From an uncultured Gammaproteobacteria bacterium (GTDB lineage Bacteria > Patescibacteriota > Microgenomatia > Daviesbacterales > UBA10151): DNA of 64,000 bases. Position numbers and translations under genes: made by a program. The notes under the pieces are model-generated. The model was not told the origin of the DNA. It saw nothing but the letters and a program-made list of their open reading frames with translations, and searched no databases. Shown here in pieces: positions 50,369-53,402 of the stretch. The stretch's first letter is position 1; the number at the start of each line of letters is the position of its first letter. The stretch is from positions 766-64,765 of the forward strand of contig CAZCNP010000001.1 in the NCBI GenBank assembly GCA_964500725.1, read 5' to 3'.

Positions 50369-50779
50369 CTATCTAACCCTATGTCTTCTCTTTACCTTAA
50401 GCTGTGCTAAAGATTTTTCCAAGTTTGCTAAGGTTTCTGCATATTCTTCATCAGACAAAGTTTGCTCCAAAGCAGCCTGCGCTCTTTTTCTTGCTTCTTC
50501 TACCTCTTTCTCATCAATATCTGTTTCATATGTTGCCAAGTCAGTCATAACAGTTAAAATATTATCAGTAACTTGCAAAAACCCATCTCCAATTGCTAAA
50601 CAATCTTCTTTTGATCCCTTTTTAATTATTAACTGTCCTGGAGCCAGCTTTGCCATCAAATTAGCATGATTGGGGAGTATTCCTATCTCTCCATCAACTG
50701 TAGAAACATTAACCTGGGAAACCTCCTCATCAATTAATAATTTTTCAGGAGTAACAACTTTTAAATGCAACTGAGTCAT
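50369..50779 (-). CDS. atpC: F0F1 ATP synthase epsilon subunit
   Basis: MTQLHLKVVTPEKLLIDEEVSQVNVSTVDGEIGILPNHANL. It is separated from atpD by two opposite-strand genes. Confidence 0.8.
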   Translation of the reverse strand: MTQLHLKVVTPEKLLIDEEVSQVNVSTVDGEIGILPNHANLMAKLAPGQLIIKKGSKEDCLAIGDGFLQVTDNILTVMTDLATYETDIDEKEVEEARKRAQAALEQTLSDEEYAETLANLEKSLAQLKVKRRHRVR

Positions 50780-51012
50780 AAATAAATTATATCATCTACT
50801 CTAAATCTTAATCCATCTTGGGCAAGCTCAGTGTAGCGTCTAAAAGGATTTATTCTAACTGCTTGCTCGTTGTGATTACCGTTTAATCTATAATGCTTCC
50901 CACCCAAGGCTTTCATTCTCTCAGCTAACCAATTACCAATTCCTAACCCCCCTCTTTCTGCTTCCTCTTTTAGCTCATAAGGGTAAAGTGCAGACTTTAA
51001 TTCTCCTGCCAT
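50776..51012 (-). CDS. Hypothetical small protein / possible gene remnant upstream of atpC
   Basis: 78-aa ORF. The in-frame upstream extension has no start codon and reads RCRAAPGTHSADHGGCGYADLW. I could not assign a family. Confidence 0.3.
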   Translation of the reverse strand: MAGELKSALYPYELKEEAERGGLGIGNWLAERMKALGGKHYRLNGNHNEQAVRINPFRRYTELAQDGLRFRVDDIIYL

Positions 51013-51220
51013 CCATAAATCAGCATATCCACAACCTCCGTGGTCTGCGCTATGTGTACCAGGTGCTGCTCTACATCTTTGGATTAAAGCCTGTATATAC
51101 TTCGTATTTCACATATCTTTAAAAAAATCCGGCCATGTAGGCCGAATTGATTAAATTGATTAAGCTAATAGTGTACCAAATCTGGCCAAAAAAGCAAAAA
51201 TAGTGTAATATTTTAAAATT

Positions 51221-51586
51221 ATGTCAGATCATAATTGTGAAGCAGTCATAGTAACTTGTATTGACTTCAGATTTCAAGAATATATAAATAATTGGATTTC
51301 AGAAAACGTCACCCCAAAATCTTTTGATAGGGTAGCTTTAGCTGGGGGAGTATTTGATTTTGGTTATGTCTTAAAACAAGTTGAAATCTCCAAAAGGCTG
51401 CATCATATTAAAAAAGTAATCCTAGTAAACCATGAGGACTGTGGAGCATATGGAGAGTCAGGGACAGCCCAAAAACATGCAGAGGATTTAAAAGATGCTG
51501 CTTCCAAAATCAAACAGCAATACCCAGACTTGGAAGTAGATTTATACTACCTCCACCTAGATGGCACTTTTGAACCAATTACCTAA
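51221..51586 (+). CDS. Minimal beta-class carbonic-anhydrase-like protein (121 aa)
   Basis: TCIDFR (CxDxR) and NHEDCGAY (HxxCG) zinc-ligand motifs with Cab-like spacing. It aligns to the M. thermoautotrophicum Cab core and lacks the C-terminal third. Confidence 0.5.
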   Translation: MSDHNCEAVIVTCIDFRFQEYINNWISENVTPKSFDRVALAGGVFDFGYVLKQVEISKRLHHIKKVILVNHEDCGAYGESGTAQKHAEDLKDAASKIKQQYPDLEVDLYYLHLDGTFEPIT

Positions 51587-51641
51587 ACCTTAGTAACTAA
51601 TCTTACAGAAAAATCTTCAGGCTATAGCTATTATATTAATA

Positions 51642-52034
51642 ATGATAAAAGGAATCGAAAGCATTATTTTATTTTCTGAAGATGCTAAAGCTTTGGCAGA
51701 GTTTTATCAGGAAAAAGTGGGGCTTAAACTGACAACAGAAGCAGAAGTAGGGGAGGAAGGAGAAAGTTTGTATGGCTTTGAATTTGGTAGTGATAAACCT
51801 GCTTTATATATAATGAATCACTCAGAAGTAGAAGATGAAAATGAGGAGCCCGAAAGAATAATTTTTAATTTAGAAGTTGATGATATAGAGGAAGAAGCTA
51901 AAAAATTAGATGAGGCTGGAGTTAAAAAGATTGCTGATACTTATCATGTGCAGAATTACGGTCTGATTGCTACATTTGAAGATTTAGATGGCAACTACTT
52001 CCAACTCGTCCAAATCCGCTCCAGCGAAGCCTAA
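51642..52034 (+). CDS. VOC / glyoxalase-bleomycin-resistance family protein
   Basis: Glyoxalase-like N-terminus (IESIILFSEDAKALAEFYQEKVGLK) and an acidic core. Confidence 0.6.
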   Translation: MIKGIESIILFSEDAKALAEFYQEKVGLKLTTEAEVGEEGESLYGFEFGSDKPALYIMNHSEVEDENEEPERIIFNLEVDDIEEEAKKLDEAGVKKIADTYHVQNYGLIATFEDLDGNYFQLVQIRSSEA

Positions 52035-53402
52035 TTACTTAACCTCATCTATGGTTCCCTTCATGTAGAAGGCTTGTTCGCTCTTGCTGTCATGCTTTCC
52101 ATCTAAGATTTCTTTGAAAGCCCTGATGGTTTCTTTTATAGAAACATACTTTCCTTTCATTCCTGTAAAAGCTTCTCCCACATAAAATGGCTGGGTTAAC
52201 ATTCTTTGTATTTTCCTTGCCCTGGAAACTGTTTGTTTATCATCATCAGACAACTCTTCCATGCCTAAAATAGCAATAATATCTTGTAACTCTTTATATC
52301 TTTGTAAAACTCTTTGTACTCCTATTGCTACCTCGTAATGTTCTTTACCTACTACCTCTGGTGATAAAGCCCTGGAAGAAGAAGCTAAAGGATCAACAGC
52401 AGGGTATAATCCTTGCTCAGCTAAAGATCTCTCCAAAGCAATAGTAGAATCCAAATGAGCAAAAGTAGTAGCAGGAGCAGGATCTGTATAATCATCAGCT
52501 GGCACATAAACAGCCTGAACTGAAGTAATTGATCCTTTTTTGGTGGAGGTAATTCTTTCTTGAAGCTGTCCCATCTCAGTTGCCAAAGTTGGCTGATAAC
52601 CTACAGCAGATGGAATTCTTCCCAAAAGTGCTGAAACCTCAGAACCAGCTTGGGAGAATCTAAAAATGTTATCTATAAAAAGCAATACATCTTTGCCCTG
52701 CTCATCTCTAAAATACTCAGCCATAGTTAAAGCTGATAAAGCAACTCTTTGTCTTGCCCCAGGAGGCTCATTCATCTGTCCAAATACCATAGCTGTTTTA
52801 TTTATAACCCCAGAACCAATCATCTCATTATATAAATCATTTCCTTCTCTAGTTCTTTCACCAACTCCAGCAAACACAGAAAATCCTCCATGTTCTGCAG
52901 CAATATTTCTAATAAGTTCCTGAATTAAAACAGTCTTACCAACTCCAGCTCCTCCAAACAAACCTACTTTTCCACCTTTAACAAATGGGGCCAGCAAATC
53001 TATAACTTTAATTCCTGTTTCAAAAACTTCAGAAGTAGTAGATTGCTCTGCAAATGGGGGAGCAGCCCTGTGAATTGGCCAGGATTTTTTCGCCTTTACA
53101 ACACCTTTGTTATCAACAGTTTCACCTAAAACATTAAATAATCTTCCTAAAACTTCCTCACCAACAGGCACAGAAATAGAAGCACCAGTATCTAAAACTG
53201 GAGTGCCCCTTTTTAATCCATCAGTAGCTCCCATAGCCACAGCCCTTACTTGTCCTTCACCTAAATGCTGCTGGACCTCTAAAACTAATTTGTTTTTACC
53301 AATGGTAGTTTCCAAAGCATTATAAATTGCAGGCATAGCCTTCTGCTCAAATTGAGCATCAACAACGGCGCCAATGACTTGTATAACTTTTCCTTTACTC
53401 AT
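52035..53402 (-). CDS. atpD: F0F1 ATP synthase beta subunit
   Basis: [11 protein letters not shown]-loop, DELSEED-like region, full-length beta. Confidence 0.95.

Follow-up and report, generated by a model that had tools for sequence, protein, structure and literature searches.

The stretch of DNA analysed here (the window; 64,000 nucleotides) corresponds to contig JACQIW010000013.1 of assembly GCA_016198315.1, a metagenome-assembled genome of Candidatus Daviesbacteria. It carries an F-type ATP synthase operon in which atpC, the gene for the F1 ε subunit, does not directly follow atpD, the gene for the β subunit. The two are separated by a gap of 1255 bp that holds two genes on the opposite strand and a third element, an open reading frame (ORF) of 78 codons that appears to be part of a pseudogene. 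The locus is made up of the following genes and ORFs.

52035–57753, minus strand: atpB-E-F-H-A-G-D, the first seven genes of the F-type ATP synthase operon, from the ORF list
52035–53402, minus strand: atpD; Pfam ATP-synt_ab, E 6e-76
51642–52034, plus strand: VOC/glyoxalase gene; PF00903, E 1.9e-10, 41.6 bits against a cut-off of 20.6; PF18029, E 5e-8
51221–51586, plus strand: Pro_CA_2 gene, 121 amino acids; PF20393, 62.9 bits against a cut-off of 30
50776–51012, minus strand: ORF of 78 amino acids, whose stop codon overlaps the atpC start codon (ATGA)
50369–50779, minus strand: atpC, 136 amino acids; PF02823 (ATP-synt_DE_N), E 7e-26; PF00401, E 5e-8; TIGR01216, E 2e-33

All eight ATP synthase subunit genes lie on one strand in canonical order, and the precomputed Pfam labels of the source contig agree with their assignments. 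The atpC gene is intact, with both of its domains present. The VOC gene, for which no specific NCBIfam equivalog was found at its cut-off, converges on atpD, the two stop codons being directly adjacent (0 nt), while the Pro_CA_2 gene is divergent from the 78-residue ORF and atpC. An earlier interpretation made from the letters and their ORFs (the sequence-only reading) had described this gene order with the same coordinates and identities, including the nature of the two plus-strand genes, the immediately convergent stops and the interruption of the operon between atpD and atpC, and the ORF map, Pfam and NCBIfam bear it out on each of these points. The canonical bacterial F-type ATP synthase operon reads atp(I)BEFHAGDC, as in the unc operon of Escherichia coli. 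The window shares with that operon all eight structural genes, their usual order, the single strand and an intact atpC; it differs in that atpD and atpC are not adjacent and in that atpC has an apparent −10 box of its own. The atp genes are spread over more than one transcription unit in cyanobacteria and chloroplasts (atp1/atp2) and in α-proteobacteria (separate F0 and F1); to our knowledge, these splits keep the β and ε genes together. The Daviesbacteria genes likewise appear to be spread over more than one unit, but the break falls exactly between β and ε, and the two units are still neighbours.

The arrangement recurs in eight Logan contigs, which are separate assemblies of other sequencing runs. 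Each is 100% identical to the window across the part that it covers of the stretch from the Pro_CA_2 start to atpC (four of the eight terminate inside atpC), and this identity between independent assemblies rules out an assembly artefact. Contigs L002, L003, L006 and L007, from the same population, end exactly 31 nt past the VOC stop codon, within the end of atpD, and L004 and L005, also of this population, end at most 15 nt from the same point. These shared ends suggest a branch of the assembly graph at conserved atpD sequence, with co-occurring strains or relatives as its source.

For comparison, a scan with atpC that took one genome per species yielded 43 loci. The distance between atpD and atpC is 356–5108 bp in all 30 of the related Daviesbacteria loci that hold both genes; in nine further loci, atpD was not found within the retrieved DNA, which extended up to 6 kb upstream of atpC but less where the contig ended, as happened in several. 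In the four remaining loci, from distant Patescibacteria that serve as the outgroup, the two genes are 27–259 bp apart. A neighbour-joining tree of atpD plus atpC, of which record L134 is not part, places all of the split loci in one clade. Since the genes are apart in every relative that has both of them and are close-set in the outgroup, the split is ancestral to the Daviesbacteria clade and is not an insertion in this genome; where the genomes differ is in the content of the gap. Clustering the gap ORFs of the window and the 43 loci gave 95 protein families, among them VOC, AHSA1-like, peptide deformylase and coiled-coil proteins and a Y1 transposase-like gene, and the content is so variable that the gap is a hot spot of gene turnover. 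The VOC gene occupies the same slot in L016, L020, L027, L032, L033 and L133, and L020, the nearest relative of the window (atpD 94% identical), has both the VOC and the Pro_CA_2 genes.

In many relatives, the atpD stop codon is abutted by an opposite-strand gene of varying identity at a distance of 0–5 nt (window 52032–52037, L133 3046/3047, L032 3554/3555, L015 2209/2210, and also L011, L016, L022, L025, L035 and L036). With only 0–5 nt between the stops, a terminator would not fit between the convergent genes.

The 78-residue ORF extends upstream in frame by 32 codons (NTKYIQ...THSADHGGCGYADLW) to a TGA at 51109–51111, with no ATG, GTG or TTG within the extension. The sequence-only reading had noticed this start-less extension and had suggested a remnant of a disrupted gene, which is what the matches and the deletion anatomy described below indicate. 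The 110-residue frame formed by extension and ORF matches the Pfam family CDCA (PF18484) over profile positions 55–148 of 184 with 22.7 bits (E 8.6e-5), which is below the gathering threshold of 29.2 bits, and it matches the three solved repeats of the carbonic anhydrase CDCA1 from Thalassiosira weissflogii in the Protein Data Bank (PDB) with E ∼5e-4 and the HSxDxxGCG segment aligned. An exhaustive search of 1.84 billion representatives recovered 23 relatives, of which the full-length ones have 217–248 residues; the fragment aligns with their residues about 94–189, and its central ∼98 codons are 66–72% identical in amino-acid sequence to residues about 89–186 of intact relatives. A word-indexed protein search with the 110-residue fragment returned only the fragment itself, NCBIfam gave no match for either the fragment or Pro_CA_2, and Rfam at a permissive threshold reported nothing in 50700–51300. 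TGA terminates 10 of the 48 long ORFs in the window and thus serves as a normal stop in this genome. Recoding (code 4 or 25) therefore does not carry the extension through the TGA, and the first stops beyond it are TAA. A complete N-terminus in a different frame was also sought and ruled out, only the start codon and ten codons surviving. Alignment with the intact gene of L013 resolves the remnant into the following parts.

51080–51112, minus strand: 5′ remnant of the ζ-class gene, a GTG start plus 10 codons (VKYEVYTGFNP), in a frame that differs from that of the rest of the remnant
51082–51087, minus strand: TTAATC, junction of deletion 1; 239 bp missing relative to L013, frame-shifting
50794–51087, minus strand: central ∼98 codons of the putative ζ pseudogene (LIQRCRAAPGTHSADHGGCG...RFRVDD), including the 78-residue ORF
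50792–50793, minus strand: junction of deletion 2; ∼124 bp missing, L013 5864–5987 being absent in the pairwise alignment

The 5′ remnant matches the start of the L013 gene at 29 of 33 nt, and the spacer, a hairpin (see below), the start codon and the first ten codons are collinear with L013 (window 51120–51081, 85% identity), the start codon having changed from ATG to GTG. The hexamer TTAATC is present twice in L013 (at 5333 and 5572) and once in the window, at the site of deletion 1. Codons 12–88 are deleted, and with them the first metal-ligand cysteine within the active-site motif Cys-x-Asp-x-Arg (the invariant E45-C46-x-D48-G49-R50 of E-C-x-D-G-R-F-D in intact relatives). Deletion 2 takes away the stop codon together with the 36 codons before it (L013 numbering) and some of the spacer, and joins ...RFRVDD to a TATAAT box before atpC. 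The start codon of the 78-residue ORF corresponds to an internal methionine that intact genes also have (DLWMAGELK in L013). Taken together, sequence matches and anatomy identify the ORF as a pseudogene remnant of a ζ-class carbonic anhydrase, presumably non-functional and caught part-way through removal. Two deletions destroyed the gene, one of 239 bp, out of frame and between the TTAATC repeats, and one of ∼124 bp that took its last 36 codons; the annotated 78-residue protein is the longest ORF left of it. Two differently broken ζ-like copies come from other populations, P0009 (78 residues) and P0013 (103 residues). The latter has lost the N-terminus, and in its interior ...GDW is joined to FMADLG by a deletion whose ends apparently lie at two similar GA(T/C)TGG sites, the same kind of microhomology event as in the window.

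Intact ζ-like genes are found at the position of the remnant, between Pro_CA_2 and atpC, in L013, L026, L031, L037, L045 and L133. They are divergent from Pro_CA_2 and co-oriented with atpC, and end 15–24 nt before atpC in these six loci and 52 nt before it in the P0221 locus (median ∼24 nt); L019, L038 and L042 have the gene in other arrangements. The intact relatives pass the PF18484 threshold (42 bits against 29.2), all 55 of 55 close homologues carry PF18484, and a profile of the ζ-like family aligns with CDCA1 over its full length with E 1.6e-18, bringing the C-x-D-G-R (Cys-x-Asp-Gly-Arg) and Cys-Gly motifs into register. An AlphaFold2 model of an intact protein (pLDDT 93.3, pTM 0.90) matched only CDCA1 repeats in a Foldseek search of the PDB at E ≤ 0.001 (TM 0.79–0.85, E ∼1e-13). 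By sequence and predicted fold, the intact relatives are firmly ζ-like, with CO2 hydration and Zn/Cd binding as predicted properties; the copy in the window is, judged by its sequence, a pseudogene and not a member of the family.

A known counterpart is CDCA1 itself, a ζ-class cadmium/zinc enzyme of a diatom (PDB 3BOB, 3BOH and 3UK8), with which the intact Daviesbacteria proteins share the profile, the predicted fold and the Cys motifs. CDCA1 consists of three repeats, whereas the Daviesbacteria relatives are single-domain proteins of ∼220 residues, and the window copy differs further in being a pseudogene without the first motif. The metal-ligating histidine of CDCA1 lies ten residues before the second cysteine (PMC8217695). 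Both cysteines are conserved in the intact relatives, but position −10 is occupied by the invariant Pro97 and an invariant histidine, His100, is found at −7 instead; some distant ζ-like members have H-x-x-C, as in β-carbonic anhydrases.

Immediately 5′ of the ζ gene start, two putative regulatory elements precede the remnant.

51119–51148, minus strand: GC-rich hairpin (stem 51126–51148) followed by T7 (51119–51125), from the terminator scan
51170–51178, minus strand: extended −10-like box TGGTACACT, upstream of the hairpin; TGnTATACT in relatives, in conserved alignment columns; putative promoter element

The hairpin, which the sequence-only reading had placed at about 51130, has a predicted folding energy of −15.3 kcal/mol (z = −2.9). 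It is conserved in seven of the eight loci with a ζ-like gene, where it lies 5–12 nt upstream of the gene start and downstream of the conserved TGnTATACT box, and two of its six predicted pairs are kept through compensatory changes. A GC-rich stem-loop, a U-run and conservation are features of an intrinsic terminator, and termination at this site is predicted. We regard hairpin and T-run as a terminator-like leader element of the ζ gene, which appears to have outlived the decayed gene itself. It could serve as an attenuator of the ζ gene, and it could also stop minus-strand transcripts that come from atpD and run antisense through VOC and Pro_CA_2.

The Pro_CA_2 gene encodes a protein in which Cys13, Asp15, Arg17, His71 and Cys74 (the zinc-ligand motifs CxDxR and HxxC) are invariant among 40 homologues; both motifs are also kept in the homologue from L050 and in Moranbacteria-type copies (see below). 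The AlphaFold2 model (pLDDT 89.7) has β-carbonic anhydrases as its best Foldseek matches (1G5C, TM 0.73–0.76, E 2e-6). Against PF00484 the protein scores 18.3 bits, below the cut-off of 25.7, and at 121 residues it falls short of the typical length. Sequence and model thus point to a member of PF20393, a minimal β-carbonic-anhydrase-like protein with predicted activity. It shares CxDxR, HxxC and the predicted core fold with the Cab-type enzyme of Methanobacterium thermoautotrophicum (1G5C), but the matched 1G5C chains comprise 155–169 residues and typical β-carbonic anhydrases ∼200–220, and its identity to solved structures is ∼15%. No profile similarity between Pro_CA_2 and the ζ-like family was detectable.

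Pro_CA_2 is the commonest resident of the gap, being found in 25 loci by ORF clustering and additionally in L024 by tblastn. In Daviesbacteria it is always on the opposite strand and lies upstream of atpC in at least 25 loci; where the ζ gene is missing, its start codon is mostly ∼17–30 nt from that of atpC. L050 shows a second arrangement: its homologue, 35% identical, is co-oriented with atpC and follows it at a distance of 24 nt. When metagenomes were scanned with the L050 copy as the seed, 80 loci were returned, 63 of which have enough upstream DNA; atpC lies directly upstream of Pro_CA_2 on the same strand in 50 of these 63 (median spacing ∼100 nt) and within 3 kb of it in six more. The 50 linked loci form 45 clusters at 90% identity, and sampled loci with named cluster members are mostly from Candidatus Moranbacteria. 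Because the scan was seeded from one homologue, these counts do not imply an atp linkage for every PF20393 gene. Pro_CA_2 is nevertheless tied to atpC in two deeply separated groups of the candidate phyla radiation (CPR), in two arrangements, and is not a random passenger. No report of a linkage between carbonic anhydrase and ATP synthase genes in CPR bacteria was found in the searchable literature.

An ancestral split, a decayed ζ-class gene with the anatomy given above and a lasting linkage of Pro_CA_2 to atpC together make up the account that we favour, and as a whole we consider it to be well founded. The sequence-only reading had instead proposed a two-gene insert. On that view, Pro_CA_2 and VOC would have entered as a cassette, in this genome or in a very recent ancestor, and broken a resident gene. 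Opposite-strand genes do adjoin a broken gene, the gap content varies among relatives and the Y1-type transposase-like gene lies near the operon (57833–58555) and also within the L013 gap. The same reading had named a shared arrangement among relatives as what would speak against it, and the split is found throughout Daviesbacteria, in each of the 30 loci with both genes, with Pro_CA_2 mostly in the same place and orientation. The ζ gene was destroyed by two internal deletions and not by an insertion, and collinearity with the intact loci extends over its upstream spacer, its leader hairpin and its 5′ end. No terminal or flanking direct or inverted repeats and no target duplications were found around the supposed insert, its G+C content of 0.33–0.37 shows no compositional shift from the flanks (0.36–0.40), no integrase or recombinase gene lies between atpD and atpC in the window, and none of the relatives examined offers an empty site with contiguous atpD and atpC; none of these marks of a mobile element or genomic island is therefore present. 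Synteny thus largely refutes a recent insertion, which we rate as extremely unlikely. The sequence-only reading stands as regards the interruption, the remnant and the plus-strand genes, and falls as regards an insertion in this genome. It did not recognise that the remnant derives from a ζ-class carbonic anhydrase gene, that Pro_CA_2 has long been a neighbour of atpC in other CPR lineages, or that the hairpin has a T-run and is conserved as a leader of the decayed gene.

The 78-residue ORF, or a longer product, might alternatively be a functional small protein, a re-used ζ fragment that is translationally coupled to atpC through the ATGA overlap and acts, for example, as a partner of ε. Its 78 codons are open, its stop codon overlaps the atpC start, it is identical in nine independently assembled contigs and it is annotated as a protein by NCBI. 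The nine contigs, however, represent one population, and their identity is silent on selection for that reason. The start codon is an internal methionine shared with intact genes, the fragment has lost the Cys-x-Asp-x-Arg motif and, as judged from the model of the intact protein, it would also be without the strands and helices of the N-terminus, the final two helices and the final strand. The same truncation was found in no other protein among 5.8 billion clusters; the family has other broken fragments (P0009 and P0013), which differ in how they are broken and therefore indicate recurrent decay, and no trace of the gene is left in L020, the nearest relative, which has lost it altogether. A functional fragment is accordingly very unlikely in our estimation. 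Three observations weigh against the account of ancestral split, decay and linkage. The open ORF with its overlap makes translation of the fragment possible; the patchy distribution of the ζ-like gene on the tree, which fits repeated loss, also fits transfer between Daviesbacteria; and the synteny with atpC within Moranbacteria may partly reflect plain inheritance. On the favoured account, atpC would have become separated from atpBEFHAGD in the ancestor of the clade, where Pro_CA_2 would also have come to sit just upstream of atpC on the opposite strand. Genes would afterwards have been gained and lost freely in the gap, which in this genome now holds the VOC gene, Pro_CA_2 and a decayed gene for a ζ-class (CDCA-like) carbonic anhydrase.

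The separation raises the matter of how atpC is expressed. Candidate −10 boxes precede both divergent genes at this end of the gap.

50786–50791, minus strand: TATAAT box, ending 6 nt upstream of the atpC ATG
51206–51211, plus strand: TAATAT, putative −10 box read from the sequence, 9 nt upstream of the Pro_CA_2 ATG

Of 37 Daviesbacteria loci, 25 have an exact TATAAT 5–13 nt before atpC (background 0.6%), and 35 have one with at most a single mismatch (background 4.5%); the box is absent from this position in the outgroup. Only one of the 37 loci has a Shine–Dalgarno-like motif before atpC, and the window has none. The box is conserved on its own account, because homology between loci does not extend to the sequence beyond it. 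A −10 hexamer 6–12 nt before the start together with the lack of a Shine–Dalgarno sequence is the pattern of leaderless or short-leader transcripts, and since atpC in the window shows a TATAAT 6 nt before its ATG and no Shine–Dalgarno sequence, we infer, with some confidence, that it has a leaderless or near-leaderless promoter of its own.

The alternative is that atpC is still co-transcribed with atpBEFHAGD by read-through past atpD, antisense through VOC and Pro_CA_2, so that the split would amount to a long spacer; convergent transcription would then make the ATPase and the inserted genes negatively coupled in their expression. Consistent with this, the stops of atpD and VOC are 0 nt apart, no terminator-like site follows atpD on the minus strand for ∼500 nt, and a convergent gene adjoins the atpD stop at 0–5 nt in many relatives. 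Along the minus strand from atpD to the hairpin, the terminator scan gave a weak candidate only. The strong hairpin with its T-run, which separates Pro_CA_2 from atpC on the atp strand both in the window and in seven of the eight ζ loci, speaks against read-through, as does the conserved TATAAT (in 25–35 of the 37 loci, without a Shine–Dalgarno sequence), which points to an independent start. We hold co-transcription to be rather unlikely as the arrangement for atpC, although a promoter of its own and read-through are not mutually exclusive. Several points tell against the separate-promoter interpretation: the related loci are not independent, so that a binomial P for the atpC box overstates its significance; the promoter and terminator roles are assigned from consensus matches; and L020, which has neither ζ gene nor hairpin, has no terminator-like site anywhere between atpD and atpC, and read-through could therefore reach atpC there.

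Comparable boxes occur elsewhere in the window. Many genes that are first in their transcription units have a −10-like hexamer (TATAAT, TACAAT, TAAAAT or TAGAAT) 6–10 nt before the start and no Shine–Dalgarno sequence, for example those starting at 378, 24674, 27120, 30663, 35788, 36795 and 43967 and the minus-strand genes at 18961–20106, 43196–43921, 49342–50262 and 57031–57753, while operon-internal genes often have GGAGG. This suggests that leaderless or short-leader transcripts may be widespread in this Daviesbacteria genome.

Other families with carbonic-anhydrase-like motifs lie beside atpC in further loci. Proteins of family F4 (∼500 residues) are encoded on the same strand in L014 (4459–5985), L015 (4493–5980), L021 (2763–4286 and 4354–5988), L023 (3324–4811), L032 (4508–5986) and L041 (3392–4903), in most cases just upstream of atpC; another gene intervenes in L023 and L041. 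The members are very divergent (13–26% identity) and have an invariant C-x-D-G-R and a second invariant cysteine within the consensus HGCG. Family F13 (∼360 residues; 358–362) lies immediately upstream of atpC in L016 (4902–5978) and L023 (4879–5967) and has the motifs C-S-D-A-R and H-x-x-C-G-G, and family F16 (∼245 residues) has C-x-D-G-R. None of the three families matched Pfam, F13 having no precomputed Pfam match either, and profile searches of the PDB were null for them. Alignment to the ζ-like family with hhalign was weak for F4 (E 1.8e-4, 48% probability) and F16 (E 2.2e-4, 45%) and gave nothing for F13. A 239-residue protein on the opposite strand, which resembles F16 by size and position alone, has a weak precomputed CDCA match. 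F16 is probably ζ-like by these sequence comparisons; F4 is possibly so, as another family with the carbonic anhydrase fold.

These neighbours raise the possibility that the F-type ATPase of CPR bacteria has functional partners in carbonic-anhydrase-fold proteins (Pro_CA_2 of 121–150 residues, the single-domain ζ-like proteins and perhaps further C-x-D-G-R families). In favour of it, Pro_CA_2 diverges from atpC upstream of it in Daviesbacteria and follows it within one operon in Moranbacteria-type loci, it stays beside atpC amid heavy turnover in Daviesbacteria, and the site just upstream of atpC is filled by different families with C-x-D-x-R and Cys-Gly motifs in different genomes. We put such a physiological link forward tentatively, as an idea with a minority chance of being correct.

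The surroundings of the operon contain several further features. The Y1-type (IS200-like, PF01797) transposase-like gene at 57833–58555 on the minus strand lies directly upstream of atpB, and its homologue in L013 (1942–2619, minus strand) lies inside the atpD–atpC gap (E 9e-10 and 9e-9 for the window and L013 genes, respectively); such a gene may contribute to gene turnover around the operon. Beside it in the window are two adjacent small plus-strand genes, DUF6883 (59132–59476, E 7e-27) and DUF4926 (59495–59731, E 1e-19), which look like a two-gene cassette. Inside the operon, the atpA–atpG spacer (54283–54408) is unusually long (126 nt) and AT-rich (G+C ∼0.29), with a repeated motif TTAGAAAT (gattagaaattagtacttagaaattagaaatt) just upstream of atpG. 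A tRNA-Leu(tag) was predicted by ARAGORN at 29180–29263 on the plus strand, where the Rfam tRNA model gave no report at its gathering threshold.

An ancestral layout and a pseudogene largely explain the original observation, and both are ordinary. The supposed insert is corrected to an ancestral arrangement, and the annotated hypothetical protein HY383_03925 would be a pseudogene fragment that should not be counted as a gene. The β–ε gene pair is normally among the most stable of bacterial gene neighbours, and here a whole candidate phylum has the ε gene uncoupled from the β gene. The ζ class is usually described as a diatom speciality; groundwater CPR bacteria are now predicted to hold single-domain homologues of the diatom enzyme. 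A promoter of its own for the ε gene would allow separate regulation of this inhibitory subunit. Of moderate interest is the persistent attachment of genes for carbonic-anhydrase-fold proteins to atpC in CPR bacteria, and the linkage of Pro_CA_2 to atpC could be tested as a clue to the way in which metabolically minimal cells handle pH, CO2 and their ATPase. If the functional partnership is real, atpC and the carbonic anhydrase would form an independently regulated module that might, for example, set the local supply of HCO3− and H+ or relieve inhibition of the ATPase, in fermentative cells whose ATPase would work mainly in the direction of hydrolysis and proton pumping.

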